64,000 nucleotides of DNA from the IMG/VR virus record IMGVR_UViG_3300034101_006325, positions 1-64,000 of that record; one strand, 5' to 3'. The notes below the pieces were generated by a model. The model was not told the origin of the DNA, made no database searches, and saw nothing but the letters and a program-made list of their open reading frames with translations. Origin of the DNA: a virus. Taxonomy: Duplodnaviria; Caudoviricetes. This document shows, in pieces, positions 28,135 through 63,515 of this stretch. The position numbers were made by a program, and so were the translations under genes. How positions within the stretch are numbered: position 1 is the stretch's first letter; the number at the start of each line of letters is the position of its first letter.

Positions 28135-28709
28135 GCACCTCCGGGCGAAGCACCGGCGCGGTCAGCAGCAGGAGGCTGGAAATTCTCGTCATCTGCTTCA
28201 GTCTTGCTCTTTCCTACTACAAGACCGTGTCTTTCTGACAATGATTCCTTAAAAGCATCGGCGACGTCTCCTTCATAATTCTTCACAAGAAAACTTACGG
28301 CTCTTCTAAAAATGGTATTTCTCATTTCAAGAAGAGAATCATAGTTGTCTGCAAGTCTAACAACACTATCAGCAAATGAATTAATGTCAAGATCGTCGAT
28401 AGATAATTTTTCTATCTTTTTATCCTCAGACTCTTCTTTGTCTTTATCCTTATCTTTGTCTTTGTCTTTCTTGTCATCCTTATCTTCGTCTGCTTCATTT
28501 AAAAATCTTCGCATGAATAAACGAAAGTCATGACCTTCATTTTTTGAATTTTTTGCTTCTGACTCATACTGAGAAAAATAAGCGTCTATTTGAGAGTCTA
28601 CAGAATCTTCGCCTGAAGATTCTTTGTCTTTTAAATTTTCTTCGACAAGAAGCAAACGAACTTCTTTTATCAAAGTTTTTAATTGACTTTTTGTAATTTG
28701 CTTTTTCAT
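28131..28709 (-). CDS. hypothetical protein with LKTLIKE leader
   Basis: MKKQITKSQLKTLIKEVRLLLVEE; KD-rich low-complexity linker. Confidence 0.75.
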   Translation of the reverse strand: MKKQITKSQLKTLIKEVRLLLVEENLKDKESSGEDSVDSQIDAYFSQYESEAKNSKNEGHDFRLFMRRFLNEADEDKDDKKDKDKDKDKDKEESEDKKIEKLSIDDLDINSFADSVVRLADNYDSLLEMRNTIFRRAVSFLVKNYEGDVADAFKESLSERHGLVVGKSKTEADDENFQPPAADRAGASPGGA

Positions 28710-29419
28710 CTGAGCACCTGCGCAATGCTCTCGACTTTTTTGACCCTATCTTCGATAATATTCCAGTTAAATTCTCTCATTTGAGAAATAAGATAGCTTT
28801 TCTTGTCATTCATGTAGTCTCTGTAATATGAATGTTCCCACATGTCGACAACGATTAGTGGATAAAAACCAACAGGAACATGTCCATCGTGGCCGTCAAC
28901 CATCACATTGACAAACCTTTTTAGAAACATATGATAGCCCATGACAGCCCAGCCATTCTGGCTAGCTAATGCACATCCCATGAAGTCTCTTTGCCAGTTT
29001 TCAAAAGATCCAAAGTCTCTTTCGATCCGCAAAAATGTCGTTGAGTCCATTACAATTTCGCTGTGCGGATCGAAACAATTGGCAAAATAAAGTTCGTGCA
29101 GCCAAGCTGCATTTAAATTAAAGATTTCATCAATCTTTAAAGATCTAAACTTTGAATGCCTGGGATTTGCATCGGACTTGTCAACAGAGTCAAGTTCGGA
29201 CGAAACTTTATTTAATGATTCGACGTAACCTTTGTAGAGTTCTGTGTGAGCGTTCTTGGTCTTTTGAGAAACAAGTTCAGAAACTTGCTTAAAAGGCTTT
29301 GGCTCATGAACATATGCTTCATTGAGATTAGGCAGTTTCTCTGACACTGTACTGTTAACAGCATCTTTTACTAAGCCCTTTAAAAATTTATCGAGACCGT
29401 CTTTATCACCCTGGTACAT
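28706..29419 (-). CDS. sod: Fe/Mn superoxide dismutase with N-terminal extension
   Basis: AH..LY.GYV..LN, FN.NAAWLH, DMWEHSYY. Confidence 0.85.
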   Translation of the reverse strand: MYQGDKDGLDKFLKGLVKDAVNSTVSEKLPNLNEAYVHEPKPFKQVSELVSQKTKNAHTELYKGYVESLNKVSSELDSVDKSDANPRHSKFRSLKIDEIFNLNAAWLHELYFANCFDPHSEIVMDSTTFLRIERDFGSFENWQRDFMGCALASQNGWAVMGYHMFLKRFVNVMVDGHDGHVPVGFYPLIVVDMWEHSYYRDYMNDKKSYLISQMREFNWNIIEDRVKKVESIAQVLR

Positions 29420-29690
29420 ATTCGTTCCTCCACTGCTCGCCGTTTATAACAAATTTTTCTTTTCCGTCAGCCGAAACAAGAGTTACAACATCAGGACCAG
29501 TCGAAACAACTGTATAAAGCTTTTGGCTTTTCTTGTTTTTTGCTTTGAAGCCAGGCGATGCTATTTCGACTTCTTTGCCATCAACTTTTGCCGTAAGAGA
29601 AAGTTTTACTTCCTCAGTAAGCTTTTGAATTTTCTTGTTCCATTCTTCACGCATGACGCGTATAATGTCATTTTCTGTCAAGTTGTTCAT
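29406..29690 (-). CDS. hypothetical protein with IIRVMREE leader
   Basis: 94 aa. Confidence 0.65.
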   Translation of the reverse strand: MNNLTENDIIRVMREEWNKKIQKLTEEVKLSLTAKVDGKEVEIASPGFKAKNKKSQKLYTVVSTGPDVVTLVSADGKEKFVINGEQWRNEYVPG

Positions 29691-30139
29691 AAATCTCTAG
29701 GACTAACTATGATCTCACTTAAACTTAATACGTCAATATCAGCAGACTTTAATAATTCTATTCCAGAAATATCTCTGTACAATTCTCCATAAATTACTCT
29801 TGAAATTTCAGCATTAACTATTAATTTTGCGCAGTGTCTGCATGGTGAATGTGTAACATACATGTATTTCTTTTTATGAAAATTAAAGTCACACTTAACA
29901 AGAGCATTAACTTCAGCATGTAAAAGTCCGCCTAAACCAGGTTCATCTGACTCTCTTACATTTGGTCCGCCTTTGTAATTGCCATTATATCCAACAGACA
30001 ACATTCTAGTGTTGTCTTCGGAAACAATAATGGCACCTACTTTTAAGATAGGATCATACGACCTCTTAGAAATTTCTCTAGCAATTGACATCCAAGTTTC
30101 AGGCCAGCTAGGTCTTTCCATATCACTTCTCAGGATCAA
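29687..30139 (-). CDS. dCMP deaminase
   Basis: KVGAII, GYNG, HAEVNA, THSPCRHC. Confidence 0.92.
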   Translation of the reverse strand: MILRSDMERPSWPETWMSIAREISKRSYDPILKVGAIIVSEDNTRMLSVGYNGNYKGGPNVRESDEPGLGGLLHAEVNALVKCDFNFHKKKYMYVTHSPCRHCAKLIVNAEISRVIYGELYRDISGIELLKSADIDVLSLSEIIVSPRDL

Positions 30140-30686
30140 AAATGAGGGGATGACACCTTAGACACCGAGGTTCGTAAAGCTCCGCCCCTCCTACTTCTAT
30201 CTCATCTCCACCAGTTTGTTTCTTGTATGTATAATAAGCATCCTTGCTGCAAACAGTACAAACTGCGCTCCTTTTTTCAACGTGAGTTGCCCATGGCAAC
30301 ATTCTCTCAATTTCATCAAAAACTTTACCTGTTGCGGAGAGTTCAAGTGAAGAGACAACGACTGAATAACCGCTTCGATAAAGCCAAATAAGAACCTTGG
30401 CAACGCCAGGAATCATAAATGCCTCGTCTACAGCAACTACGTGAGGATTTTCATCCATCTCAGAAAGTTTTTCTAAAATATCACTACCTTCTCTTATACA
30501 AGTGGCTGGTACTTTCCAGCCGCTGTGGGTACAAACAAAATCTTCGCTGTATCGATCATCAAGACGTGGTTTAAAAACAGCTATTTTTTTGTTCTGGTAC
30601 TTAAATCTATCAATAGATGAAAGCAATCCTGTTGTTTTTGAACTAAACATTGGTCCTGTGTAAATGATAAATTGAGGATTCGACAT
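30123..30686 (-). CDS. tdk: thymidine kinase
   Basis: GPMFSSKTT, VDEAFM, C..C, YEPRCLRC. Confidence 0.92.
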   Translation of the reverse strand: MSNPQFIIYTGPMFSSKTTGLLSSIDRFKYQNKKIAVFKPRLDDRYSEDFVCTHSGWKVPATCIREGSDILEKLSEMDENPHVVAVDEAFMIPGVAKVLIWLYRSGYSVVVSSLELSATGKVFDEIERMLPWATHVEKRSAVCTVCSKDAYYTYKKQTGGDEIEVGGAELYEPRCLRCHPLIFDPEK

Positions 30687-30710
30687 GATGATCTCCTAAA
30701 AATATTTTTA

Positions 30711-31679
30711 TTATGCCTCAGTTGACAGTTCTAAAATTAATTTAAAATTATCTTGGTACCACTGAATTGTCCTGTCGAGGCCTTCTTTAAAAGGCACATC
30801 AACTGAATAGCCGAGATAATTTTTTGTTTTTGTAATGTCGGCCCTCGTATGCATTACATCGCCTGGACGCCAAGATGCTTCATAGAAACTCGCATCTGGA
30901 AATTTCTTGAGCAAATAATTCAATATTGTTTTATTCGTCGTGCTTACGCCGCATCCAACATTAAAGACTTGCCCGCACAAGCTTTCTTTAATTTTTAAAG
31001 AGGACAAAATGGCATTAACAACATTGTCAACATAGCACATATCTCTAGATTGACTTCCATCTCCGTCGGATCTCATCGGTTTGCCCTTCAAAATGGCATT
31101 TATCCAGGCAGAAACTGCTGTCGAATAAGGAGAATTACCGAGCTGATTAGGACCAAAAACATTAAAAAATCTTAGACTTACAGAATCAAAGTCATACAGT
31201 TGATAAAAAAGCTTAAGATAATTTTCAATCGACAACTTTTGAAGTGCATAAGGCGAGCGAGGATCAACAGGCCCATCGGGCAAAGAAGGCAATGCCAAGG
31301 AATTGCCATATATTGCAGACGTAGAAGCAAATACAAATCGTTTTATATTTCCTCGGCAAGCATCCAACAGCCTTAATGTCGATGTAACATTCACTTGATG
31401 TGATTCAAATGGATACTCAACTGTAAACAACACTCGAGGATTGGCTGCAAGATGAATAACAGCATCATAATATCCTGATTTTATTCTTTCGATGATGTGA
31501 GGAGAATCAAAGTCGCATACAAAAAAACGATCATTTATGAATTTTTCAGGAACAAATTTCAAGTGACCATTCGATAAATTGTCAACAACATCAATATTGT
31601 AGTCGTCATTTTCAGAAAGTTTTTTTAGTAAATTACTTCCGATGAATCCTGCGCCGCCTGTTATAAGTAAATTTTGCAT
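30711..31679 (-). CDS. NAD-dependent epimerase/dehydratase (extended SDR)
   Basis: TGGAGFIGS, HLAA, YALQK, RFFNVFGP. Confidence 0.92.
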   Translation of the reverse strand: MQNLLITGGAGFIGSNLLKKLSENDDYNIDVVDNLSNGHLKFVPEKFINDRFFVCDFDSPHIIERIKSGYYDAVIHLAANPRVLFTVEYPFESHQVNVTSTLRLLDACRGNIKRFVFASTSAIYGNSLALPSLPDGPVDPRSPYALQKLSIENYLKLFYQLYDFDSVSLRFFNVFGPNQLGNSPYSTAVSAWINAILKGKPMRSDGDGSQSRDMCYVDNVVNAILSSLKIKESLCGQVFNVGCGVSTTNKTILNYLLKKFPDASFYEASWRPGDVMHTRADITKTKNYLGYSVDVPFKEGLDRTIQWYQDNFKLILELSTEA

Positions 31680-31690
31680 AACTTGAAATG

Positions 31691-32602
31691 TTAGTTTACA
31701 ACATCTGTTCTAATGTGTGCACTATTCATGTTAATGATTAATCGAATTTTTTCTACAGACCACTGAAAAACTTTTGGCATAAACGCCGAAAGATGTGCAA
31801 GAAATCTTGTGTCGATCTCGCCATTTTTTTCGACATCTGTGCTTCTAAGAGTACAAATGACAGTAATTTTATTACTTCTAGGTAAAAAATGGATAGATGA
31901 TATGCAAGTATCTGAAGAATAATAAAAACGCCGAGAGTTCATGTCCTGAGGTTTGTTGTATGGATTGTCTCCATTGATTTCTTTTTGAATGACCTTGGCA
32001 CAGTCATCAATAATTCCATTATAATAATGAATTTCTCGAGGATCATCGCACACAGCAAAATCGCTGTAATCGGGGTCAAGAACCAACTCAAAGTTAATTT
32101 GTGTTTCCGACGACGACAAACCTTTTAGGACATTTACTAAAGATTGACCAACCTCTCGAGGACTAGAATTTTCGTACTCTTCAAGTTTACTCTTTACAAG
32201 ATCAGTCAAGTCGTCCAAATTTAGCGCATCCCGTACAACTAACACATTAGGAGAATTTTGCAAGACATCAACTTCATTATTAAAGATATCATAAAGTCTG
32301 GACAGGGATGTTGCGTCTTGGGCTTCGTCACCTCGTGAATTAAATCTTCGAAGAATCTCTTCCTTTGGAGGCAAAAGAACCACGACAAAGTTATTCAAAT
32401 TGCTGACTTCTTTGGTCAAAGAAATACGATGATGTGACTCATCCCTACCGTAAAGCTTGGCGTAACACAGCATTGATAGACAAGATCTATCCTGAATATT
32501 GTATTTAAAACCAGTCGAACGGTGTAAAGAAGAATAAAGTGAAGTTTTGCCGCTTAGATCAGAACCCTCAAGAATCAAGTAATTGACAGGAAGACTCATC
32601 AT
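31691..32602 (-). CDS. dNMP kinase fused to a truncated thymidylate synthase / dCMP-modifying domain
   Basis: N-terminal LEGSDLSGKTS and QDRS; C-terminal SRR...TC...HF...RSTD.......D...SAH. Confidence 0.7.
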   Translation of the reverse strand: MMSLPVNYLILEGSDLSGKTSLYSSLHRSTGFKYNIQDRSCLSMLCYAKLYGRDESHHRISLTKEVSNLNNFVVVLLPPKEEILRRFNSRGDEAQDATSLSRLYDIFNNEVDVLQNSPNVLVVRDALNLDDLTDLVKSKLEEYENSSPREVGQSLVNVLKGLSSSETQINFELVLDPDYSDFAVCDDPREIHYYNGIIDDCAKVIQKEINGDNPYNKPQDMNSRRFYYSSDTCISSIHFLPRSNKITVICTLRSTDVEKNGEIDTRFLAHLSAFMPKVFQWSVEKIRLIINMNSAHIRTDVVN

Positions 32603-35600
32603 GCCACCTTTCTCAGCTTAAAAATTGATGTTGAAAATCCCCAACTAGGATCGTTCGATGCTTGACCTACCCAAAGTGTATAAGGATCAATAGATTCCGT
32701 TGGATTACCCCAGATTCTAATCCAGCCTTGACGTGAATCATTGTCAATAGCCTTGCACCGATAGAATGCCTTTCCATTCTTTGTCTTTTTAAGGTTGACT
32801 TCAGTCACGAGAAACCAACCTATACCGTCAGAACCAGGCTGTACATCGTGCAATGATTGGACACCTTTTTCAAGGAGTTTTTTCATAATGTCGGGAGGAA
32901 ACAATAGATCGACGTCTGCTGTGGAAGTAAGATCATATGCCATGCTGATCTTTTCATCTCGCGTCCAATCTACAGTACTGGCTTGCTCCTCCAGCAACAC
33001 GTCAATTACTGGCAGCGGATCGATTCCTTCTTTTGCAAGCTTTTTTAGCTGAGCTGCAGTTAAACCATAGATTCCTTTTCGCAAGGTTTCATAATTTTTA
33101 TCTTCAGTCAAAGCCAACAATAATTGTCTGTGGTGTCTTACAGACCCTCCTTGAAAATCTTCAAGTGATTCCAGAGCTTCAATCTTGCAAAGTGCTGAAA
33201 GTGCAGTCTTATTGACCTTGCTGTGACGCCAATTTCCTTCTGCATCATAAAGCATTTCTTTGAGATTTTTGTAAGGTCTATTCTCCATAATTTCGTCGAC
33301 TGCAGTTGAACCAATACCCTTGGCTGAAGTAATAGGAGGAACAAATGCATCGGCTTTTTCAGAAAACTGCCATTCTTTACCTGAATAATTGATATCAATC
33401 TTGGAAAATTTGTATCCTAAAGACTTAATTTCACCAATTACCTTTGTCAGCTCTTTGGGATTTGAATTTGCCGACTGAAGAATCGTGGCAAGCCAGTCCT
33501 TCTCATAGTGAGTGTGGAGCCAGGCAGCATAGTAAGAGTCGATCGCATATGCGACGGAGTGTGACTTGTTGAAGCCATAGAGGGAGAAGAACTCGATCTT
33601 GTCGAACAGGGCATTGGTGATGTCCTCCGAGATTCCGTGGATCTCCTTTGCGCCCTTCACGAACTTCTCGCGGAGCATCGCCTTCTCGCCGCCCTTCTTG
33701 TCGAGGGTGTCGAGAGACTTCTTGACGAGAGTCTTGCGCATCTGATCTGACTCGCCAGGATTGAAGCCTGCAAGCTCAACGGCCAGGGACATGAACTGCT
33801 CCTGGAAAGTGATGAACCCGCGAGTCGGTCCGAGGACCTTCTCGATCAGCGGATGGTCGTATTTAATCTTGGTCAGGTCCTTGCCGGCGTCGACGTACAT
33901 GTTGTGGACGTTCGCTTTGAGGGGGCCAGGGCGATAGATCGCCGTGATTGCTGACAGGTCTTCGATGCAGTTTGGTTGAGACTGCATGCAGAACTTTCGA
34001 GCTCCCTGAGCAGTGAACTGAAACACTCCGACGAATCGTCCCTCATGGTAGACATGTTTCCAAACCTCGGGGTCGTCCTGCTTCACGTAGCGACAGTTGA
34101 GGTGCTTGTCGAAGAACGCCTTCACGTTGAGGAAGGTGGGATCAGGGTTTCCCTGGTTGACGAGGATCCGACGGATGCAGTTCTCCACGTCCTTGAGGAG
34201 CGTGAGTCCGAGGAAGTCGAACTTGAGGAAGCCGTTGTCCTCCAGGTTGCGGAAGTTCATGCCTTCCGTCCACGGGGTCTGCAGTTCGCCTCGGACGCCG
34301 ATGATGGGCATCGTGGCTGCAAGGTCGTCCGGATCTGCCACGATGACGCCGCCGGCGTGTCGACCGACGGATCGGTTCTGCATAAAGAGCGTCTCGACGT
34401 GTGCCGCGACGTCTGGGTACTTCTCCATGAATGCCTTGTACTTCGGAGAGTACTTCATGCAGTCCTCGTGCTTCAGGACGAAGACGGACTTCTCCTGATC
34501 GTCGTCGCGGGCGAGCGGCATCACCTCGTCCTGAAGCGGACCCGTCATCTCGTTCACCTCCTCGAAGGGCACGCCGTAGATCTTGGCGATGTCCTTGACG
34601 AGGGACTTGAGCTTCAAGGTGTTGAAGTTCGACACCGGGATCACAGCGTCGTCGCCGAACAGCTCGCGTGCCGAGTCGATCAGGGCATCGCGGTCGCCTG
34701 CGTCGGAGTCGATGTCGGGCCACGACACGCGATGGCGGCCTAGGAAACGGCTCCACAGGAGACCGTAAGGCAGGGGATCGATCTGAGTGATGCCGAGGAG
34801 GTAGTTGACGAGTGAACCTGCGCCTGAACCACGGCCGGGGCCGAACAGGGTCCGAGTCTCCGCCTTCTTGAAGATCTTGTACATCGTCACGAAGTAGGAA
34901 GCGTGACCGAGGTACTTGATGTCGGACAGCTCCTCCTTCACGCGGGCGACGTATTCTGGTTTGTCAGACAGGCCTTCACGAATCAGGGCCTCCTTGACGA
35001 GCTCAGTGAGCTGCTGGAATGTTGTCTTGCCTGGCATGTCCAGCTTCGGTAGCTTTGCTTTAACATCGACCCATGTATCCTCACAATGTTGCCATGCGAT
35101 ATCATGGGTCCTCTCGATGGCGTCTCGGACCTCCTCCTCGGAGCCTCGATAGAACTCGTACTGCTCGTAGGACTTCTTGTACTCGTCCCACATCTGGGAT
35201 GCATTCTTCGGATACAGCTCGCACTTAAGATCTTCGAACTTTGGAAGTGCCTGTTCGTCGAGCTTAGCACCCATCCATCCAAGCTTCTTGTAGAGCTCAC
35301 GGGCCTGCCACTTCGACGGGTCGGGATAGTGGGAATCGCAGGTGGCGAGCAGCTTGACGCCGGACTTTCGAGACAGGTCGATGAGGTACCTGTTGACCGT
35401 GTGCTGCTTCGGCAGCTTGTTGAACTGGATCTCGAGGAAGAAGTTCTCGGTCCCCACCGCATCCGTGAACCTGTCCGTGAGGTTCATCAGCTCGGAGATG
35501 ATCTGCTCCGAGTTCTTGCCGTAGGCCTCGCCGCGGAGGATCGTGCCGCTGTAGATTCCACCAAGGCAGGCCGTGGACCACACGATCCCCTTGCCGTACT

Positions 35601-36224
35601 TCCGGAGGAGGTCGAAGTCGATGCGTGGATAGCGGTAGAAACCGTCCTTGAACGACGCCTTCACGAGGCGATTGATGTTCGCGAGACCTTCGGCGGTCTG
35701 CGCCACCGCCACGAGGTGGTAGCGACGCTGCCAGTCGGGCTTCTCCTTGTAGTCGTCTGCCTTCGTCTCGTTCTCGTCCTCGACGACGTGTCCGCCGGCC
35801 TCTTCCTCCTCCACCTCGTCAGCGTCGACGTCGGTCCGGACCTTCGCCTTCTTCTCGGCCTCCGCAGCGGTCTTCGCGTCCTTGATCGCCTGCTTGTGTG
35901 CCTCGTAGTCGATCTTCCACTGTGTCAGCGAAGGAACGAAGTAGAACTCCACACCGTAGAGCTGCCGGTACTTCACGCCCTTCTTCTGCAGCTTCTTTGC
36001 TGCGGAATGAGCGTGTGCGAGGCCGTTGCCGTTGCCGTGGTCGGTCAGGGCCCACGCGTCCATCCCCTGTGATTCGGAGACAATCCACTTTATATGATCC
36101 TCGGGATAGCCAAGTCCGTCAAAAGTTGAGAAACCCGAAAAGCCGCCCCTGAACAAGCCAGGGGCGGCACCTACGAATGCGCGTGGAAACCGACGAATTT
36201 CTTCGGCGGCGTCACATCGCGCAT
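32599..36224 (-). CDS. dnaE: DNA polymerase III alpha, interrupted by a 38-nt out-of-frame insert (36136-36173)
   Basis: PHP motifs (HAH, TDHG, E, H, DSH), GRGSGAGS, PDIDSD, RHAGG, KFDFLG, FNKSH; first 14-17 codons lie in another frame (start GTG 36215 or ATG 36224, AAGGAG RBS). Confidence 0.93.
36136..36176 (-). other. candidate translational bypass (ribosome hop) element or micro-intron
   Basis: mRNA UCG UAG GU GCCGCCCCUG GCUUGUU CAGGGGCGGC UUU UCG: matched UCG codons, stop codon, perfect 10-bp stem; removal restores HAHS-GFSTFDG. Confidence 0.75.
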
Positions 36225-36234
36225 CTCCTTAAAA

Positions 36235-36264
36235 GTGTTAGATGACATGATAACAATCTAACAC
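36235..36264 (-). promoter_or_regulatory. dnaE upstream extended -10 inside a 9-bp inverted repeat
   Basis: GTGTTAGAT...ATCTAACAC flanks TG-T-TATCAT on the minus strand. Confidence 0.5.
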
Positions 36265-36355
36265 GCGAAATCTGTCGTTTACACACGGGAAGCAAATGCA
36301 GTTCGAGGCGAAACCCGAAGGAATCGCCTCAATTGCGTTTCTTTGAGGCTCTTTC

Positions 36356-36607
36356 TCAGATGTCCGTGACGGTGCCGTCTTCGTCGAGCTTGAGACCGAC
36401 ATCAAAGAGCTGCTGATCAGTGATCGCGCCTGGATACACCGCGAGTGCAGACTCGAGATCCTCAATAGAGACATAGCCTCCCTCCAAGTAGATCTCATCG
36501 AATGCGTCACGGAGCTCGAGGTTGCTTACGGATTCACGTGTCTCTCGGATTACTTTTCGTGCTTCTTCCTTGATGATGGAACGCAACTGCTTTACTGTGA
36601 TCTTCAT
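36356..36607 (-). CDS. small protein with LRSIIKEE leader
   Basis: MKITVKQLRSIIKEEARKVIRE; AAGGAG RBS. Confidence 0.75.
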   Translation of the reverse strand: MKITVKQLRSIIKEEARKVIRETRESVSNLELRDAFDEIYLEGGYVSIEDLESALAVYPGAITDQQLFDVGLKLDEDGTVTDI

Positions 36608-36643
36608 GTCTGACGCGTCTCCTTGCTTACGTAGCGCTACTGT

Positions 36644-37648
36644 CTAATTATTAGGACATTTTGGAAAGTGCTGCAAGAGGTCAAACTTATGCTCGGCCGC
36701 CTCGTCGAGGTACTTTAGCGGATTATAGTCGGAAGAATTGCGGATCCATTCCAGCGTCCGCTGAATACCGTCGAGCAAATCAAGTGTTGGTTTCCAACCA
36801 AGCTTTTCTCGAATTTTTCTGGATGACAACCGGTGGTTTCCGAGATAGTCTGTTGTCGGGTGCCACCTCACGAGATCAGATGCCGATGCACCGACAACAT
36901 CGTCTATAATCTTCATCACTTCTCCTGCAGGCACTGGTGTCTCCGCGGAGACGTTCCAGTCTGTCCCCCAACCGGGCCCGGAGACGTCGCGGCATACTAG
37001 CTCAACAGCCCTGCAAAAATCCTCCACATGGAGGTAGTCCTTTACCTTCGTCGGATCCAGAAACATATCCACGGATTTCTTTCCGTTGAGGTAAGCATAA
37101 ATCGACTTCGCGATGAGCGAATTCATATCACCGAGGCCACCAAACGCGAATAGCGGTCGAACGATAGTCCACCTATCTGCCATTGCTGTGACAATCTGTT
37201 CTGCGGCGAGCTTCTGGACGCCATAATAAGTCCGAGGAATCTTTGTTGAATTTTCTACAATCTGTTCGTCTTGATAACTCTTCGTATCATAGATGACAGT
37301 TGTTCCTAGATAGCAAACTGCAGCCTTTGCTCGATTGGCAGCACGAACAATGTTGTATGTGCCTTGGACGTTGGATAGTGTCGCCTCTGCAGGATCAAGG
37401 GCAACCACGTCTGTTCCGACCACAGCAGCATTGTGAACGACGACGTCGACATCATTGTCGTAAAGCGCTTTATGCCAAGTTTCCTCCGAATTCCTGTGGA
37501 TGCATGCCTCCCCGGTGCGTGGAAACTTGACGTAATCTATTCCCTCGAACAGATCCTTGTCGGTCACGACTTCCTGTGAAAGAGATTCTAGAACGACCTT
37601 GAGATTACGAGCGATCAGGCCCTGTGGTCCGGTGATATAGTACTTCAT
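36644..37648 (-). CDS. NAD-dependent epimerase/dehydratase (extended SDR), second copy
   Basis: ITGPQGLIA, HNAA, YGVQK, RP. Confidence 0.88.
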   Translation of the reverse strand: MKYYITGPQGLIARNLKVVLESLSQEVVTDKDLFEGIDYVKFPRTGEACIHRNSEETWHKALYDNDVDVVVHNAAVVGTDVVALDPAEATLSNVQGTYNIVRAANRAKAAVCYLGTTVIYDTKSYQDEQIVENSTKIPRTYYGVQKLAAEQIVTAMADRWTIVRPLFAFGGLGDMNSLIAKSIYAYLNGKKSVDMFLDPTKVKDYLHVEDFCRAVELVCRDVSGPGWGTDWNVSAETPVPAGEVMKIIDDVVGASASDLVRWHPTTDYLGNHRLSSRKIREKLGWKPTLDLLDGIQRTLEWIRNSSDYNPLKYLDEAAEHKFDLLQHFPKCPNN

Positions 37649-37734
37649 CGTTGTCTCAGTCTAAAACAAAATATCAGACTTTACACGTCGACAATATAAT
37701 GACGCAATATTTCTGAGCCTTCCATGCTAAATAC

Positions 37735-37758
37735 AAAAAAGGAAGCATTGCTGCTTCC
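37735..37758 (-). terminator. intrinsic terminator
   Basis: GGAAGCA-loop-TGCTTCC followed by TTTTTT on the minus strand. Confidence 0.7.
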
Positions 37759-37784
37759 TCTCATTGTTTAATTGGCGATATTGT

Positions 37785-38258
37785 TCACTCAATTTCCTTG
37801 TCGTAAGGCTCATACAACAGCTCACCAGCAGTCTTACAGCGCTCGAGGTAATCCTCCAACTGATCAAATGATGTGCAGACCTTGATGCCGCTGCGACTGA
37901 GCATCAAATTAAACTTTGCACCAGAAGGGAGATTTTCGCAGAAATAAACGATCTTGGTGCCGTATGCATATGATGCACCGGCCTCCCAGATGGTACCAAT
38001 GTCGCGGTATGTCGTGTTGACGAGGCAGAAATCAGCCTTCTTGATGTGATCAACATTGCCCTTGAACACATTGTCCTGTACCTCCTGCGTTGCATCTGGT
38101 GGACAGACGAAGATTCGACGGGGGGACGCAAGGTTTATCCAGGCAGAGCGATCGTCAAAGACCTTTTCCAACTTTGTGAGTTGCTTGTCCTGATCTGGAG
38201 AAAACCAACCTGATGCCAAATATACGTGAAGCTTACGACCAAAATTATTAGCGCTCAT
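37785..38258 (-). CDS. nucleoside 2-deoxyribosyltransferase / nucleotide N-glycosidase
   Basis: VYLASGWF, N..HI..AD, D.GT.WEAG, FNLM. Confidence 0.85.
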   Translation of the reverse strand: MSANNFGRKLHVYLASGWFSPDQDKQLTKLEKVFDDRSAWINLASPRRIFVCPPDATQEVQDNVFKGNVDHIKKADFCLVNTTYRDIGTIWEAGASYAYGTKIVYFCENLPSGAKFNLMLSRSGIKVCTSFDQLEDYLERCKTAGELLYEPYDKEIE

Positions 38259-38267
38259 ATGTTCCTT

Positions 38268-38849
38268 TCAAAAATTAGTATGATAGTTTATATTCAAATA
38301 CTGGGCGTCGAGAGCAACATCGCTGACAAGAGATTTTGGTCCTGCGACGAAGACTTCCGTGCTGCTCTGACCATTGTACAGGTAGCGGAGAAGTTGTTTA
38401 GGGCGTGAGCAATTTTTTGTGTTTACAAAATAAGCTCGTGCAAATTGTGGATAAAAATTGCTGAGGGCTAGAGGATCAAGTCCACGCGAACAGATGCCGA
38501 TCATAGGATTTATTCCTCTGCTGAAGAGTTGATTGATCAAAAGTGCGACTGCTCCAACGCCAGTGCCACCAGCAATCACGATGGCTGATGAAGATGATGC
38601 TGTTGGAAAACCTTTGCCGGAAGGAAATTCAACCTTGTCGATCTCCTCGCGAAAGAGGAAGGAGCTAGATTTGACGATGAATGTCAGCGTGGAATCGGTA
38701 AAATCGGCGATCGCAACCCACCTGCCGTTGACGACTGCACAGGATCCTGGAATAATGTGCTGTGTTAGCCCAGGATGGGTCAGGACGACTTTCTGATAAT
38801 CTCCACCAAGGTTTGTATTCTCGATTATTTGAAAATTATCCTGACCCAT
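38268..38849 (-). CDS. FAD/NAD-binding FNR-like reductase (PyrK-like)
   Basis: P.GKGF, IAGGTGVG, VFVAGP. Confidence 0.65.
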   Translation of the reverse strand: MGQDNFQIIENTNLGGDYQKVVLTHPGLTQHIIPGSCAVVNGRWVAIADFTDSTLTFIVKSSSFLFREEIDKVEFPSGKGFPTASSSSAIVIAGGTGVGAVALLINQLFSRGINPMIGICSRGLDPLALSNFYPQFARAYFVNTKNCSRPKQLLRYLYNGQSSTEVFVAGPKSLVSDVALDAQYLNINYHTNF

Positions 38850-38856
38850 TGCCGTG

Positions 38857-39840
38857 TCACTTTCCGTTCTTCCAGTCGTCGTGGCGCGACTTTAGTGTGG
38901 ACCAGTCGGTCATGTCCTTGTTCCACAGCTCAGTAAAGCGTTTTTGTTGACCGGAGCCATGGGTGCCATTCAGTTCCTCACGCGTTGATTGGTAGATCGT
39001 ATCATTTGGATGAAACTCAAAGATATCGTTCTTCTTGATCGGCCAATAGAGATTGGTTCCCCTCGACACAAACTTGTCGCCTTCCTTGACCCTGAAGGTC
39101 TTGACATAGTGCATGTCAGGCTTGTTGAAGTCGATGACAGAAGTAAATTCTGGCATCACCTTGGCGACTTCCACTGCCATTCGAGAGGCGAGGAGATTGT
39201 CGGCGGCAGGCTGAATCTGTGTGTCCATGCGTTGGTAGATGAATCCAATCAGATCCTTTAGTGATAGACGCATGTAATAGAACGAAGTCATGCACTTTGG
39301 CAGGATCATCCTCGCATCCATCATTGATACGACCTTGGAATCTGTCATGTCGGCGTAGAGCTGCTTTGATTCCTCAACAAGCTTAGTCCATCGTGCGAGA
39401 AACTCGGGTGAGTTCTGGACGGGCTCCGGGATTACAGCATCGTCGTCGCGGAGGTCGCGGTCTCCAGTGCACTGTGCTGCGAAAGTGCCAGCGCGGTGGC
39501 GGATGATGTGTGTCACCTCCTGGAAGGAGAGACCGCTGAGGCGGAACGTGAAGCCGAGACACTCCATCGGTGCAGGAAGAGTACGTCCTCCGAACACGTC
39601 CTCGAGGTTCTTGGAAAGTTCACGCTCAGTTACACCTCGTGTAGGATCAATATCCGGGCGATCGGCCCATGTGGCCTTGACATAGTGCCATGCAACATTC
39701 CAGGCCTGTTGTCGCGTGGGGTGGTCGACGAGTTCCACCTTGAGTGCGTCGAGGTTGTTGTGGAATTGTGTCTTTGGCTTGCGGCCAAACTTGAGTTCCA
39801 TGGGAAGATCTACGGGCTGAAGGTCACGATTAATAGGCAT
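38857..39840 (-). CDS. ThyX-like flavoenzyme paralog with atypical active site
   Basis: TFRLSG.S....THIIRHRAGTFAAQCTGDR; DAR.ILP. Confidence 0.75.
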   Translation of the reverse strand: MPINRDLQPVDLPMELKFGRKPKTQFHNNLDALKVELVDHPTRQQAWNVAWHYVKATWADRPDIDPTRGVTERELSKNLEDVFGGRTLPAPMECLGFTFRLSGLSFQEVTHIIRHRAGTFAAQCTGDRDLRDDDAVIPEPVQNSPEFLARWTKLVEESKQLYADMTDSKVVSMMDARMILPKCMTSFYYMRLSLKDLIGFIYQRMDTQIQPAADNLLASRMAVEVAKVMPEFTSVIDFNKPDMHYVKTFRVKEGDKFVSRGTNLYWPIKKNDIFEFHPNDTIYQSTREELNGTHGSGQQKRFTELWNKDMTDWSTLKSRHDDWKNGK

Positions 39841-39862
39841 TTGTTACTCCTTGAGATTGTGT

Positions 39863-39891
39863 ATTATACGCGCTAATTTGAAACATTTCAC
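39863..39891 (-). promoter_or_regulatory. sigma70-like promoter
   Basis: GTGAAA-N17-TATAAT followed by AAGGAG RBS. Confidence 0.7.
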
Positions 39892-40850
39892 TGCAAAGAT
39901 TCAAGTATGATATTTGCGGCATCGAAGGGATCCGAGCCTTCCGAGACGTAGGTTATATTCTTGAGAGAAGACACCTCTGTGTTGTATGTCTTCTGGGGTA
40001 CGACAACTTGGACACCATGCTTTGCATATTCTGCAGAATGTTTGGCCGAGTCGTCAACGGCAAAAAACTTTCCCGTCGAATAGAATTTTTGGTCCGCCAC
40101 CCAAGCAAATTTTTCAGGTGCAAAAGTTATTGCATCTGCAGGTATGTTGTGCCTGTAGAGCCACGAGTATGTGTCGTAGAAACATGTAAGATTTTTTTCA
40201 GGTCGTGCCGTGATTATCTGGATCCAGCAGCCTTTGTCTTTCAGTTTCCTCAGCGTCTCACAATATCGATGATTGGGATGAAGCCCCAAAAAACCATGCT
40301 TGTCAATAAAAGTTCTAAAATAATACTCATTGCTCAAGCCGTGCTTTTTAAACGTCGTAACGTTATAATATTCGGGACAATGAGGATCGATGAAAATTCC
40401 GCTATCTTTTGTGACAAACTCGCAGAAAGACGATCTAAACTCCGCCAAGACATCGTCCATGTCGAAAAGAACAACAGGCTCACCATTCCACTTTCTTTGT
40501 GAGAGCGTGTGTCTATAGTGCAGAAATTCATCCTTCTGCTTCAAGGCGTTCACAAATTGATCACCATCAATTGAGCACAAATTTAAAATTGCAAGAATAT
40601 AACGATATGCATCTACAGATTTATAGAGGACTTTTTGAGAGTCAATTGAATCGGGCAGAAGCCGATGATTCTTGTAATTTGCGCCTTCGACGATCCCCGT
40701 CGCTTCAGAATGTAAAGACAAAACAAAGGTCTTGAGCAATTCCTGCTTCTGACTCAGGGTGAGCTGTTTTTCATCAAAAAACAGAGATGAAAAATCTGCT
40801 TGACGCGACAAGGCATCAAGCAGATTTCCCCAATCAATTTGTGAATTCAT
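39888..40850 (-). CDS. degenerate all-alpha NTP-PPase domain fused to a 5'(3')-deoxyribonucleotidase (HAD)
   Basis: N-terminus resembles the next gene but lacks the acidic motif (YKSVD); C-terminal FDMDDVL, ITAR, K, VDD. Confidence 0.75.
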   Translation of the reverse strand: MNSQIDWGNLLDALSRQADFSSLFFDEKQLTLSQKQELLKTFVLSLHSEATGIVEGANYKNHRLLPDSIDSQKVLYKSVDAYRYILAILNLCSIDGDQFVNALKQKDEFLHYRHTLSQRKWNGEPVVLFDMDDVLAEFRSSFCEFVTKDSGIFIDPHCPEYYNVTTFKKHGLSNEYYFRTFIDKHGFLGLHPNHRYCETLRKLKDKGCWIQIITARPEKNLTCFYDTYSWLYRHNIPADAITFAPEKFAWVADQKFYSTGKFFAVDDSAKHSAEYAKHGVQVVVPQKTYNTEVSSLKNITYVSEGSDPFDAANIILESLQ

Positions 40851-40866
40851 GTATGCATTCTATGTC

Positions 40867-41250
40867 TTAATAGCCTGATTTTACACGCCGGACATTTACT
40901 TCGCCTTTTTTCATGAAGGCTTCGTACAATTCTTCCACAGATATTCCACTATAAATGACGATGCCAAAGAAATAATGCAGGGCATCCACAAGCTCTTCTT
41001 TGTAAGATTCACGATCAAAATCTTTGACCTCAGTTACTCGATGTGCTTTGCTGTTCTTTAGAAGATGATTTGCTTCAAAAAGTTCATGCATGCATTCATG
41101 TGCAAGACCTTTGAGCATTTGTTGATTTTTCTTTTCTCTAAGGTCAAGAGGAAAGTCTGGCATTTGACGTTCATCTCGCAAGAGTACATTGAAGTCTCTT
41201 TGCTGATTGTACATTTTTTCTAGCTTGTCCATTGTTGTTTCCTTAATCAC
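40867..41250 (-). CDS. all-alpha dNTP pyrophosphatase (MazG / dimeric dUTPase-like)
   Basis: E..ELFE, KEELVDALHY, KK...N..R. Confidence 0.8.
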   Translation of the reverse strand: MIKETTMDKLEKMYNQQRDFNVLLRDERQMPDFPLDLREKKNQQMLKGLAHECMHELFEANHLLKNSKAHRVTEVKDFDRESYKEELVDALHYFFGIVIYSGISVEELYEAFMKKGEVNVRRVKSGY

Positions 41251-42251
41251 AGAACTTGAGCTGCAATTAAACAGCCTCTAGCAACAGCATGCAGAGGATC
41301 GGCAGCATGTCGAACTTCCTTGACTGGCAGTGGGAAATTGTTCTCCTTTAACTTTGAAGCAAACATTTCGACAAAACCTTTGGCCTTTGAGGTGCCTCCG
41401 GCGACGACGACGGGTAGAGCATCTTTAAATTTTGGCAATGATTTGTGGCCATCCATTGCGGCTGCAAGCTGCTTCGTAGTATAATCGATGAGACGTTCAT
41501 AATAGGCAGCAACTGCAGCAAGGACTTGATTGTCATTAGGTTGACCGACGGTGAAATCGCCTGATTCTTTCTCAGCTTGGACAATTGAATCAGCCTCACC
41601 CGTGGCGACTGCAGACATGCGATCTACCCAGTCACCGCTCTTAGTAGTTGAAAACTTGACTACAGGCTCACCATTGAGCATAACACAAACATTGACCATG
41701 CCAGCTCCCCACGAGAGACAAACACCCGTATAGTCATCCTTATCAAGTTCGGAATAACAAAGAGCCTCTGCCTCATTTATTGCTCTTGCAGAATAGCCTA
41801 CTTCAGTTAGAAGTTTAACGATGACGTCTTCATGATACCCAACATCGAAATCATCATCTTCTTGATCGATCGGTTGTGCTGGGACACAGAACACAAGTTT
41901 TTCTCCTTCTTCGCTTGGTTTTCCAGCAACTTCTTTAAGGATAAAAGTCAAAATTTTTCTCGCATCTTTTTCTTTGGACGAGACGACGCCACGGTACATT
42001 GGTCTCTTTGCGGAGTCATTTCTCTCCACAGCTTTTTCAATTGCATCGGCACCGAGCAGAATAAATGAACCATCAGAGTCTTTAACAAATGTTTTTCCTG
42101 TAAGACCTTTTTCGATCATCTTTGTAGCAATTGGTGTGGTTGGCTTGATAACATAAAAAGCATCCCTAAAATCTTTATAGTTGACCTTTCCTTTGTTTCC
42201 TTCCGAAGCTAGAACAATGAATGATGTACCTACGTCTAAACCCTTAGCCAT
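41247..42251 (-). CDS. actin-like ATPase (MreB/FtsA superfamily)
   Basis: LDVGTS phosphate-1, NEAEA connect, SWGAG phosphate-2, VAGGTS adenosine motif. Confidence 0.85.
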   Translation of the reverse strand: MAKGLDVGTSFIVLASEGNKGKVNYKDFRDAFYVIKPTTPIATKMIEKGLTGKTFVKDSDGSFILLGADAIEKAVERNDSAKRPMYRGVVSSKEKDARKILTFILKEVAGKPSEEGEKLVFCVPAQPIDQEDDDFDVGYHEDVIVKLLTEVGYSARAINEAEALCYSELDKDDYTGVCLSWGAGMVNVCVMLNGEPVVKFSTTKSGDWVDRMSAVATGEADSIVQAEKESGDFTVGQPNDNQVLAAVAAYYERLIDYTTKQLAAAMDGHKSLPKFKDALPVVVAGGTSKAKGFVEMFASKLKENNFPLPVKEVRHAADPLHAVARGCLIAAQVL

Positions 42252-43249: not shown

Positions 43250-44302
43250 TTACAATTTTCCATGTGGTCCATTTTCTTGGACCCCATTGGATGTAATCTG
43301 AACAAATTTTGATTTTGAACGAAGTTCTCTAATTGTTTGAGCACCAGAATAAGAAAGCCCTGACTTAATACCTTCGAGTAAATCTGTCAGGGTGTTCTTT
43401 AATTCGCCTTTATAAGGTATGAGCGTTGTTTCTCCCTCTGTGACTGAAACTTTTCCTCTCCACTCAAGCTGAGCTTCGCGTGAAGCCATGCCTCTAAAAT
43501 TCTTATAAATTCTGTTATCTTTTGTGATCAACTCACCGGGCGATTCATCGTGTCCTGCAAGAATAGATCCTAGCATAATCATGTCAGCTCCTGCTGCAAG
43601 AGCTTTCACAGCATCACCGCTGTTTCTAATTCCTCCATCAGCAACAATCAAAACATCTCTATCGGACTTTGCACAGTCCATAATTGACTGCAAGGTAGGA
43701 ATGCCATGACCTGTCCTAATTCTTGTTGTGCACATGGAACCACCACCAATTCCTACACGCAAAGAATCTGCGCCCCAGTCGGCAAGGTCATTAAATGCAT
43801 CAAGTGTTGCAATATTGCCTGCCATGATATGAATATCATTACTGTAGATTTTTCTTAAAGATTCCAAAGCACGTCTTGTATGACCATGATGACCATGAGC
43901 AACATCAATACAAAATGCTCTACAGCCTGAGGCATGTAGTTCAGCTGCACGTTCCAGATAATCTCCTGTCGCACCAATTGCAACCATGATATTGTTTTCA
44001 TTTGACTTATTCGTTACAAGCTTTTTTGTTTGCAAATATTCACGATTTGCCTCATCGATAGAGCAATATCGATGAAGAACGCCAAATCCTCCTGCGTCAG
44101 CCAAAATAGAAGCCGAAGATGGACTAATTACTGTGTCCATAGGCGAGCCTACAATTGGACATAAAAGATTTGATTGTTTGGCTGTTAGTCTTGCAAAAGT
44201 CTCGTCAAAACCAGGCACAGACAAATCCACTGATGACCTGGTTTCAATTTCTGAGTATTGTGGGACGAGCAGGACATCATCAAAACAAACAGCTCTTTGC
44301 AT
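43250..44302 (-). CDS. IMP dehydrogenase / GMP reductase family, lacking CBS domains
   Basis: [17 protein letters not shown], catalytic [20 protein letters not shown]. Confidence 0.92.
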
Positions 44303-44348
44303 ATATGATGTTATACACAAAGAGCTGAAAGATTTATCAGGCTAAATT

Positions 44349-62383: not shown

Positions 62384-63091
62384 ATGAGTCAAACGCTGCT
62401 GCGTGAATATCTTGATCTGATGCTTGAAAAAATTCGATCAAAAAAGAAAGTAAAGACAAAATTTGGAAAACCAAATTTTGATCTTGAAGAATTTAAATCT
62501 CTACCGAATGAAGCAATCATGAGAGCGTATGCGATGAATTATTTGGATCCCTTAGGACAAGGAAGCTCAAGAATTGCATTCGTTTTATCTGGCAATAGAC
62601 AGAAAGTGTTGAAGATAGCTCTCAATGAAAAAGGTCTTGCACAAAATAAAGCTGAACTAGAGGTATATACAGACCCTGCTACTGCCGACATGGCGGCAAA
62701 AATATACGATACAGACGAGAACAATCGTTGGGTAATCGCTGATATCGTCAGACCTCTAACGAACCCAATGGAATTTAAAAAGTTAACGGGAACGGATTGG
62801 GATCAATTTGTGCAAGACATGATGTCGTCTGTTTCTCAGGCTGCAAGAAGAAGAGATATGAAGTTAAGGGATGACGCGCCTGAATTTACAAAAAAGGTCT
62901 ATAGAATGGCTGAAAAAGGAAGCAATAAACTTCGTCAAGGCGACTTGACAGTTTTAGACCATTGGGGTAAAACAGCGGATGGCAGGGTCGTAATACTTGA
63001 TTATGGCTTCACAGTAGATGTTGGAGAAAAATACTACGACAAAAAGCCACAAAAAGTCGCGGTTCAAGACGATATTCCTACTGGCCGGTAG
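62384..63091 (+). CDS. protein kinase-like fold protein with LLREYL leader
   Basis: LGQGSSR glycine loop, VLKIA Lys, NKAE Glu, DL...HWG, ILDYG. Confidence 0.65.
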   Translation: MSQTLLREYLDLMLEKIRSKKKVKTKFGKPNFDLEEFKSLPNEAIMRAYAMNYLDPLGQGSSRIAFVLSGNRQKVLKIALNEKGLAQNKAELEVYTDPATADMAAKIYDTDENNRWVIADIVRPLTNPMEFKKLTGTDWDQFVQDMMSSVSQAARRRDMKLRDDAPEFTKKVYRMAEKGSNKLRQGDLTVLDHWGKTADGRVVILDYGFTVDVGEKYYDKKPQKVAVQDDIPTGR

Positions 63092-63515
63092 AGCCAAAGC
63101 CTCCTGAGCCTCTGTCGGTCTTGGTTAAGCTCTCTGTCACCTGGAATATCCCACGAAAAACTCTTGAAAATATCATCTGAGCAATCCTATCGCCTTTATT
63201 GACAATAAATTCCTCGTCACCTGTATTCAACAGAATGACCTTGATTTCTCCTCTAAAATCTTCATCAACTGTTCCCGGTGTGTTCAGTACTGTGATGCCA
63301 TACTTGGCAGCCAGACCGGACCTAGGACGAACCTGTGCCTCAAAACCTGGTGGCAGTTCGATCTTTAAACCTGTCGACACCATTGCACGGCGACCAGGTC
63401 TAATGATCAAATTTTCATTTGCGTAAAGATCACAACCGGCTGATCCTTGTGTTTGATACTTTGGAACAAGACTGTTGTCATCTACCTCACAACGAATCCA
63501 AAATATATCACTCAT
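63078..63515 (-). CDS. dut: trimeric dUTPase
   Basis: AGCDL, RPRSGLA, GTVDEDFRGE, RIAQ, RG.GGFGSTG. Confidence 0.95.
   Translation of the reverse strand: MSDIFWIRCEVDDNSLVPKYQTQGSAGCDLYANENLIIRPGRRAMVSTGLKIELPPGFEAQVRPRSGLAAKYGITVLNTPGTVDEDFRGEIKVILLNTGDEEFIVNKGDRIAQMIFSRVFRGIFQVTESLTKTDRGSGGFGSTGQ

Follow-up and report, generated by a model that had tools for sequence, protein, structure and literature searches.

The hydroxymethylcytosine system of phage T4 consists of the gp56 dCTPase, the gp42 dCMP hydroxymethylase, the gp1 dNMP kinase, cd, td, tk and glucosyltransferases. To our knowledge, all characterised pre-replicative pyrimidine modifiers have the ThyA fold. A glycosylated 5-hydroxycytosine pathway was described for RB69, DLP3, HY126 and RL38JI, and it comprises a 5-hydroxy-dCMP (5hodCMP) synthase/AfhB, a YorR-like kinase, a MazG-type dCTPase, a dNMP kinase and DNA glycosyltransferases (PMC13326640). 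The 5hodCMP synthases bind flavin; Asp at the position of N177 in Escherichia coli ThyA goes with dCMP preference, and Asn at D169 is diagnostic of these synthases (PMC13326640). In the 5-hydroxy-dC clusters of DLP3, RB69 and RL38JI (Table 1 of that paper), a YorR-like 'nucleotide kinase' occurs together with a thymidylate synthase (TS) homolog (PMC13326640). Two further enzymes are related to those discussed here: PolB, a neofunctionalised ThyX relative that acts as UMP/dUMP methylase in polyoxin biosynthesis, and DmtZ, an NDT-family enzyme in the base replacement of Z-genome phages (PMC12884076). Here we describe a block of genes at 29687-41250 in the first 64 kb (the window) of the IMG/VR viral record IMGVR_UViG_3300034101_006325. 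Beside the polymerase DnaE, it codes for a divergent ThyX-fold protein (ThyX-like) and for a kinase fused to a minimal TS domain (mini-TS). Our preferred reading, whose chances we put a little short of even, is that the block encodes a pathway in which, ahead of replication, a C5-modified pyrimidine is made to take the place of a canonical one, most likely cytosine; it would be similar to those of T4 and RB69 but built from different parts.

The block and its ThyX-like flavoenzyme

The record is 200,303 bp long and rated 61% complete. The phage is an uncultured member of a ~284-kb freshwater/marine jumbo clade, and a 284-kb relative rated 100% complete bears the same module. An earlier note on this DNA had listed eleven genes for 29687-41250, called one of them a kinase-TS fusion and placed the canonical ThyX, Tmk and dUTPase elsewhere. 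The observation of the block is confirmed: all eleven genes lie there on the minus strand, the three canonical genes are outside it (Pfam-supported), and the AlphaFold2 (AF2) model of the fusion splits into a YorR-like kinase and a TS fold. What is reported below as observed concerns the identities and folds of the gene products, their conserved residues, and the synteny and co-occurrence of the genes. The genes, including two short-chain dehydrogenase/reductases (SDR1 and SDR2), are as follows.

29687..30139, minus strand: dCMP deaminase, 150 aa (PF00383, 4.4e-21; HAE and PCxxC zinc motifs intact)
30123..30686, minus strand: thymidine kinase (TK), 187 aa (PF00265, 1e-37; P-loop and two CxxC motifs)
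30711..31679, minus strand: SDR1, NDP-hexose 4-epimerase of the WbgU/WbpP type, 322 aa (PF01370, 6e-51)
31691..32602, minus strand: kinase::mini-TS, a YorR/Tmk-like P-loop kinase (aa 1-148) and a mini-TS-fold domain (aa 146-303), 303 aa (AF2 pLDDT 92.7)
32599..36156, minus strand: DnaE (Pol III alpha), main open reading frame (ORF), 1185 aa (PHP, DNA_pol3_alpha, finger and HHH_6 domains)
36644..37648, minus strand: SDR2, divergent extended SDR, 334 aa (PF01370, 2e-27)
37785..38258, minus strand: NDT-family enzyme, 157 aa (PF05014, 1e-11, 45.4 bits, cut-off 28.8)
38268..38849, minus strand: putative FNR/PyrK-like NAD(P)H:flavin reductase, 193 aa (no Pfam match; weak support)
38857..39840, minus strand: ThyX-like, divergent ThyX-fold flavoenzyme, 327 aa (PF02511, 64.5 bits, cut-off 24.8)
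39888..40850, minus strand: MazG::HAD, a degenerate MazG-like N-domain and an NT5C-type HAD 5'-deoxynucleotidase, 320 aa (PF06941, 6.6e-8, 33.1 bits, cut-off 24.8)
40867..41250, minus strand: MazG/dUTPase_2-type all-alpha NTP pyrophosphohydrolase, 127 aa (PF08761, 3e-6; phrog_12184, 2e-14)
55697-56281, minus strand: thymidylate kinase Tmk (PF02223, 1.5e-14)
56278-56937, minus strand: canonical ThyX (PF02511, 129 bits)
63078..63515, minus strand: trimeric dUTPase (PF00692, 1.5e-35)

Co-occurrence across related phages was looked at with back-translated ThyX-paralog patterns, which recovered 114 related viral loci; 80 of these were kept, and gene order was judged as far as their flanks reach. 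By tblastn, the order MazG - MazG::HAD - ThyX-like - NDT - SDR2 - DnaE - kinase::mini-TS - SDR1 - TK - dCMP deaminase was found in all 80 loci, which indicates that the arrangement is not a matter of chance. In 62 of 77 loci no more than 110 nt separate the ThyX-like gene from NDT, and in 16 of 22 no more than 60 nt separate dnaE from the fusion gene; 63 loci have SDR2 placed between NDT and DnaE. Identity across the related loci is 55-91% for ThyX-like and 54-80% for DnaE. In L023 and L028, a TGA stop divides the MazG::HAD gene from the ThyX-like gene. The inserts found between module genes of the relatives are diverse and unrelated cargo (DUF7487, methyltransferase-like, RNA-ligase-like, VWA, PLP enzyme, YkuD and endonuclease-I-like), with no glycosyltransferase among them. 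All five large relatives, one of which is rated 100% complete, carry both a canonical ThyX and a ThyX-like copy (6/6 when this genome is counted), and four of the five carry the kinase::mini-TS fusion; the fifth is a 53% fragment.

The ThyX-like protein shares with Thermotoga maritima ThyX (TM0449) and PolB the fold (Foldseek probability 1.00, TMt ~0.6), the RHR motif, the equivalents of R147 and R174 and a likely FAD site. However, it differs from them in carrying a 50-aa N-terminal and a 95-aa C-terminal extension, in scoring far under the cut-off of the TIGR02170 thyX equivalog (34.6 bits, cut-off 87.9) and in having a canonical ThyX in the same genome. Residues were mapped by profile alignment to T. 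maritima ThyX, in which chain numbering equals native numbering plus 12. R78/H79/R80, R147 and R174 have retained equivalents, the four Arg residues corresponding to the conserved R114, R116, R177 and R204. In contrast, H53 is replaced by Leu88, H59 by Cys94, Q75 by His111, E86 by Ala, S88 by Cys124, R90 by Gly126, Y91 by Asp127 and E144 by Met174, so that the equivalents of the S-x-R-Y segment and of H53, which we take to be the folate-stacking residue, are absent.

These replacements are found family-wide. The ThyX-like family consists of 204 clusters at 50% identity (E <1e-10), with ~1000 close metagenome homologs of the window protein, and the replacements are conserved over ~200 clusters, under strong constraint. 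The segment after RHR reads Q-C-[TS]-G-D-x-D-x-R; among 89 divergent full-length representatives, the Cys is present in 58, the Gly in 59 and the Asp in 62. Solved T. maritima ThyX entries include mutants at H53, S88, R90, E144 and R174, and presumably a Y91 mutant exists as well. The best PDB sequence match of the ThyX-like protein is the S88C mutant entry, because the protein has Cys at this site. The pattern suggests that nucleotide and FAD binding were kept, whereas another co-substrate, and perhaps another pyrimidine, is used. With a Cys next to C6, covalent activation in the manner of ThyA would become possible on a ThyX scaffold.

The kinase-mini-TS fusion and the partners of the ThyX-like gene

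Pfam detects only a weak P-loop in the 303-aa fusion protein. Its kinase half (residues 7-148) matches YorR (3kb2, Z 14.7 by VIA-align) and 2axp (1.2e-8); the motifs E-G-x-D-x-x-G-K-T (P-loop) and D-R are present, and E12, G13, D15, G18, K19, D38 and R39 are invariant. The TS half (residues 145-303) aligns with MilA (5b6e) by VIA-align at Z 11.5 and a root-mean-square deviation of 3.6 over 146 residues, and its best Foldseek matches are 9iqu, 9iqc and 1b5d, the first being the HY126 dCMP hydroxylase AfhB. When a mini-TS profile was compared with PDB sequences, only T4 dCMP hydroxymethylase (E 0.014) and HY126 AfhB (E 0.18) were matched, with the motifs in register. R224, R225, C233, R253, S254, D264 and H296 are invariant in 18 homologs and correspond to E. 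coli ThyA R126/R127, C146, R166/S167 and H207, with the invariant Asp at N177; C233 is the catalytic Cys, and the Arg-Arg and Arg-Ser pairs are those that bind phosphate. The position of E. coli D169 is occupied by Asp256 in the window protein; the relatives have 12 Asp, 4 Asn and 2 Glu, and Asn is found in L097 and in Geobacillus phage GR1, which is described below. The domain has ~155 aa against 217-320 in full-length homologs, and the cofactor-binding N- and C-terminal segments are missing. There is no real match to PF00303 (ThyA) within the 200-kb record, and a tblastn search with the kinase::mini-TS protein matched nothing.

The locus compares with the 5-hydroxycytosine pathway as follows. 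Both have a TS fold with the catalytic Cys and an Asp at N177, a YorR-like kinase, an all-alpha NTP pyrophosphatase, clustering near the polymerase and NDP-sugar enzymes nearby, and flavin dependence is plausible in the window given the adjacent putative reductase. On the other hand, the window TS is much shorter and has Asp instead of the diagnostic Asn at D169; the polymerase is DnaE and not of family B; the block contains neither glycosyltransferase nor arabinose genes; and the most conserved parts are additional ones, namely the ThyX-fold enzyme, NDT and the HAD nucleotidase. In DLP3 and RL38JI the kinase is next but one to the TS homolog by locus tag (PMC13326640), whereas in the window the two are fused in one polypeptide. 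The likeness to T4 lies in the logic: the pool is cleaned, dCMP is modified at C5 and phosphorylated by a kinase of its own, while dCMP deaminase, TS and TK are kept for dTTP; furthermore, the best match of the mini-TS profile is gp42, which has Asp at the D169 position too. This match is marginal, however, and folate-binding segments are missing; dTMP would be made via ThyX and not ThyA plus DHFR, and T4-type glucosyltransferases are absent.

The NDT-family enzyme has the invariant residues Y13, D76, D86, E92 and N117 and the C-terminal E157 (21 homologs). As with DmtZ/DutZ and DNPH1/MilB, an NDT-family gene here neighbours one for a dNTP pyrophosphatase, in what may be a setting of base replacement by a phage. 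DmtZ is a precedent for the way in which an enzyme of this family can clear or divert a nucleotide pool when a phage replaces a base. While DmtZ acts on dAMP for the Z base, the window enzyme has the 157-aa layout of classical NDTs, including the catalytic Glu, and conserves a carboxylate residue at its C-terminus.

Outside the clade, ten unrelated contexts of the ThyX-like gene, namely GR1 and nine from divergent representatives, were scanned with custom-built hidden Markov models. The polymerase beside the gene varies by context and is PolA, PolB or DnaE. NDT is present in five of the ten (GR1, L089, L090, L093 and L098), as is the kinase (GR1, L089, L090, L094 and L098), and in three (GR1, L096 and L097) a mini-TS gene lies directly downstream of the ThyX-like gene. 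Glycosyltransferases were found in another set of five: TAGT next to the ThyX-like gene in L090 and L095, GT8 in L094, an annotated glycosyltransferase in GR1, and one in L089, whose ThyX-like protein has a weak, sub-threshold GT2-like region as a fused N-domain. Neither SDR1 nor SDR2 is present in any of the ten. Since the partners recur across polymerase families, the conserved partners of the ThyX-like gene are NDT, kinase, mini-TS and glycosyltransferase and not one particular polymerase. The glycosyltransferases of the TAGT family reportedly act on DNA bases and go together with TET/JBP systems (Iyer et al. 2013), and the recurrence of the ThyX-like gene with a family acting on DNA bases argues that its product carries a hydroxyl in DNA. 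In L093, a dCMP deaminase gene adjoins the ThyX-like gene. In L098, a PolA phage, the gene after the ThyX-like one (L098:8896-9783) codes for a P-loop kinase with a C-terminal region that by eye resembles a uracil-DNA-glycosylase motif.

GR1 (OK896991), whose host is G. stearothermophilus ATCC 10149, is the only cultured carrier, and its ThyX-like protein is 48% identical to that of the window. According to the annotation, its region codes for NDT, an HD protein, a glycosyltransferase, a P-loop protein, a nitroreductase-type flavin reductase and the ThyX-like protein, followed by a 151-aa 'hypothetical' protein, a PHP/DnaE polymerase, dUTPase, NUDIX, an actin-like protein and TK. The start of the 151-aa protein gene overlaps the ThyX-like stop, and the P-loop and 151-aa proteins are the two halves of the window fusion (hhalign 96% and 94.5% probability). 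The flavin reductases beside the ThyX-like genes are non-homologous, FNR-like in the window and nitroreductase in GR1. Apart from the mini-TS, GR1 has no other thymidylate synthase. The annotated stretch also includes amidoligase and gamma-glutamylcyclotransferase genes, ~10 kb downstream of the gene for the ThyX-like protein, and amidoligase domains have been seen among thymidine-hypermodification contigs (PMC8989533). Our literature search returned no paper on phage GR1, nor any in which DNA modification is ascribed to the ThyX-like family.

Sugar and nucleotide-pool enzymes, the DnaE locus and its surroundings

SDR1 resembles UDP-hexose(NAc) 4-epimerases, with PDB matches to 6dnt and WbgU (1e-49 to 1e-50) and with GxxGxxG and YxxxK present. 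The nearest PDB entries of SDR2 are dTDP-glucose 4,6-dehydratases (7e-14); T117/Y142/K146 and TGxxGxxA are conserved in 52 homologs, and the Asp-Glu dehydratase pair is absent. The earlier note had proposed that a side chain derived from a sugar might be assembled by the two SDRs at the nucleotide level, as in SP-15. This proposal is unsupported, as both resemble ordinary NDP-sugar enzymes. More plausibly, they would supply NDP-sugars to post-replication glycosyltransferases or to a separate glycan island. The same note had recognised no glycosyltransferase in the window, which holds; glycosyltransferase genes are located at 154-172 kb of the same record (G000:C1:154000-172400), 90-108 kb past the window, and include at least three GT2 (154-159 kb) and three GT1-family genes (165-172 kb). 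That they act on an acceptor in DNA is conjectural.

The stand-alone MazG-like protein possesses EExxE...ExxD, of which E55, E56, E59, E85, E86 and D89 are at least 90% conserved in 64 homologs. The N-domain of MazG::HAD is homologous to it (hhalign 98.3%) and has no EExxE metal motif. HAD motifs I-IV are conserved, with D130, D132 and V134 (DxDxV), T214, K247 and D266-D267. A phmmer search against PDB gave nothing for MazG::HAD and only chance matches for the stand-alone protein. The 193-aa ORF is putatively assigned to the FNR clan: language-model features were similar (0.89-0.92) to PyrK/FNR-type clusters, with the top families all from this clan, and sub-threshold PDB matches to T4moF and PyrK (E 0.27-1.5) span its GGTG motif. 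It was not found by tblastn in the 80 related loci and is thus a lineage-specific insert; it occurs in an independent lake virome contig. The junction between NDT and this ORF (window 37850-38360) is strain-variable: virome contigs of X3 stop matching at 37853, where they continue with unlike sequence, and match again from 38361.

The following features lie in and around the dnaE and ThyX-like genes.

36171..36224, minus strand: 17-codon ORF with the first PHP motif of DnaE (ends ...FVGFHAHS), stopping at TAG
36356..36607, minus strand: 83-aa acidic ORF, with a ribosome-binding site before the ATG and no Pfam match
37737..37762, minus strand: hairpin plus T run resembling a terminator, immediately past NDT (matched by pattern only; such sites are no more numerous than in shuffles)
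39863..39891, minus strand: sigma-70-like promoter match GTGAAA-17-TATAAT, upstream of ThyX-like (10/12 positions, consensus only)

After the TAG of the 17-codon ORF there is a perfect 10-bp GC hairpin, and the main DnaE ORF resumes in another frame (window 36100-36230); an independent lake-virome contig has one extra A behind 36137. A 90-aa frame overlapping the 83-aa ORF had no tblastn match in the related loci. In two relatives (L003:14360-19274 and L012:13018-19476) dnaE is in two pieces, covering residues ~5-480 and 470-1185, that are separated by a gap of 1.3-3.7 kb; the gap in L003 holds an endonuclease-I-like ORF. In the scans for promoters and terminators, the matches exceeded shuffled controls barely or not at all, and a transcription unit of ThyX-like, FNR-like and NDT is only a suggestion.

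The GC content is 47-63% over 33.4-40.3 kb, compared with ~38% in the adjoining DNA and a genome mean of 39.5%, and one of the boundaries lies inside dnaE. Mis-assembly was considered as the cause of the jump in dnaE and rejected. Contigs X2, X3 and X5 from independent runs cross 33.4 kb and others cross 40.2-40.5 kb, and as both boundaries are crossed, the jump is attributed to recombination among relatives of different composition. The nearest relatives, L003 and L007, have 56% GC, and the record has further high-GC islands at 64-71, 75-87, 98-99 and 114-116 kb.

Directly past the module is a gene for an actin-like protein (window 41247-42251 and L083:22046-22870; Pfam Volactin, 7.6e-66); in GR1, an actin-like gene is ~9 kb downstream of the ThyX-like gene. 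The block is flanked by genes for a Fe/Mn superoxide dismutase and an IMPDH/GMP-reductase-family protein (window 28706-29419 and 43250-44320), and an IMPDH-like gene is near the module in L005, L006, L014 and L031 as well. The window also codes for a class II ribonucleotide reductase, DnaB, a flap endonuclease, a RecA fragment and the actin-like protein. Encoded peptidoglycan hydrolases point to a bacterial host. A 9.9-kb stretch from the window was found in lake/freshwater metagenomes of 17 studies. A megablast search of 50,697 phage records with the block matched nothing, and no cultured phage among them is close at the DNA level. Over the whole 200-kb record, observed/expected ratios of palindromes were 0.81-1.16 for 4-mers, with a median of 1.02 for 6-mers and none below 0.5. 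This lack of palindrome avoidance is compatible with a protected genome and not specific to one, and it is weak evidence.

A predicted route to a C5-modified pyrimidine, its alternatives and its significance

In the cytosine-replacement pathway that we prefer, all catalytic steps are predicted from sequence and structure comparison, as are the base itself and its glycosylation, if any. The MazG-like pyrophosphatase would convert the unwanted dNTP (dCTP) to dNMP. The ThyX-like enzyme, with or alongside the mini-TS with its catalytic Cys and dCMP-type Asp, would hydroxylate or hydroxymethylate the monophosphate at C5, and in this phage reduced flavin could come from the adjacent FNR-like reductase. 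The YorR-like kinase would then phosphorylate the product, a cellular NDP kinase would raise it to the triphosphate, and the phage DnaE would incorporate it. The HAD 5'-deoxynucleotidase and the NDT-family enzyme might remove or recycle the leftover canonical nucleotide. Ordinary dTTP would be supplied by dCMP deaminase, canonical ThyX, Tmk, TK and dUTPase, canonical ThyX and Tmk being the ordinary dTMP/dTDP route. The SDRs would provide NDP-sugars, with which glycosyltransferases encoded elsewhere could glycosylate the new hydroxyl after replication. Cytosine is the likelier target, because each of the six large genomes retains a canonical ThyX with its Tmk. A bolder version holds that the ThyX-fold protein and the mini-TS form an undescribed joint flavin-dependent C5 hydroxylase/hydroxymethylase, in which the Cys at the old Ser88 would make ThyA-like covalent activation possible, and that the resulting base, possibly glycosylated, fully replaces cytosine in this abundant clade and in many smaller phages; this we regard as doubtful. 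The claim of the earlier note that a modified pyrimidine is made at the nucleotide level gains from comparative genomics, the rewired active sites and the likeness to parts of the 5-hydroxy-dC and 5-hydroxymethyl-dC pathways; what it loses is the side chain built by SDRs.

Several observations weigh against cytosine replacement. The mini-TS, at ~155 aa, is without most folate/flavin-binding segments and falls below PF00303, and it may be a binding or regulatory domain instead; the Asn diagnostic of 5hodCMP synthases is not what it has at the D169 position, and its product cannot be read from the sequence. A TAGT search of the 200-kb record found none, the block itself is without a glycosyltransferase, and the SDRs may serve the separate glycan island. 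In GR1, which has no other TS, the ThyX-like enzyme could simply make dTMP. Two features make a uracil-derived product possible: the ThyX-like protein retains the Arg equivalent to R174, and the HAD domain is of the NT5C type, whose nucleotidases usually prefer dUMP/dTMP. The latter two lead to the alternative that uracil or thymine is modified, the ThyX-like enzyme making 5-hydroxymethyl-dUMP or another C5 derivative, by which thymine would be replaced in part or completely, perhaps with further decoration, as in SPO1, SP10, ViI or M6. dUMP is the native substrate of ThyX, and the phosphate-binding Arg residues are kept together with the R174 equivalent. The dCMP deaminase gene adjoining the ThyX-like gene in L093, and GR1 with its amidoligase and gamma-glutamylcyclotransferase genes and without a canonical TS, also speak for this route. 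However, the canonical ThyX and adjacent Tmk of this phage and of all five large relatives would compete with it, the mini-TS has a dCMP-type Asp, and the uracil-pocket residues R90 and Y91 are replaced in the ThyX-like protein. We judge it quite unlikely.

Ordinary salvage or pool balancing, with no unusual base, would make the ThyX-like protein a second or alternative TS or a flavin oxidoreductase; MazG, HAD, NDT, TK and the deaminase would recycle nucleotides of the host, and the SDRs would be left to glycans of the virion or host. Each family present is also known from salvage metabolism, redundant nucleotide genes are frequent in jumbo phages, and the sole status of the ThyX-like gene among the TS-family genes of GR1 (besides the mini-TS) and the position of the glycosyltransferases outside the block, in a separate glycan island, are in line with this. 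What speaks against it is that the replacements fall on residues for which mutants have been crystallised (H53, S88 and R90) and are conserved under constraint, that the ThyX-like and canonical ThyX genes occur together in 6/6 large genomes, that a dCMP-type mini-TS is fused to the kinase type of proven 5-hydroxy-dC clusters, and that linkage of the ThyX-like gene to TAGT or other glycosyltransferases is repeated in unrelated phages. Plain salvage would not explain the conserved rewiring and the glycosyltransferase link, and we hold it to be unlikely, if somewhat less so than thymine replacement. The remaining possibility is that the modified base, nucleoside or nucleotide stays free of DNA and acts as an inhibitor or signal against the host or its defences, by a logic like that of mildiomycin (a MilA/PolB modifier, an NDT-like N-glycosidase MilB/BlsM and sugar enzymes). 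PolB (polyoxin) and MilA are indeed structural neighbours, the NDT family includes base-releasing hydrolases, and SDR2 directly follows NDT in many loci. Nevertheless, the module is always beside a replicative polymerase, of any of three families, and among replication genes; a dedicated nucleotide kinase points to a triphosphate; and TAGT acts on DNA bases. A free nucleoside therefore seems very improbable to us.

Whether a given restriction or CRISPR defence is effective depends on the hypermodifications of phage DNA, which also affect its sequencing and cloning and have been a source of enzymes for epigenetic tools. New here are the identity of the fusion, the rewired ThyX-like active site and the recurrence with NDT, kinase, mini-TS and glycosyltransferases in unrelated phages, and together they suggest, short of proof, that the DNA is built with an altered pyrimidine, most likely cytosine. 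The interpretation of the system as a pyrimidine replacement, of a kind known from phages but assembled from hitherto uncharacterised enzyme types, is partly supported. Because GR1 is cultured and has the ThyX-like protein, mini-TS, kinase, NDT and a glycosyltransferase, the hypothesis is directly testable. If it is true, modified pyrimidines would be reached by a second and independent enzymatic route, that of a ThyX-fold modifier, and the 155-aa minimal TS fused to a kinase would add another. The ThyX-like family is large (~200 clusters at 50% identity) and is found in lakes, oceans and other habitats. On the bolder version above, a large share of environmental phage DNA would bear an as yet unmeasured modification, and environmental viromics may be systematically blind to such a modification.

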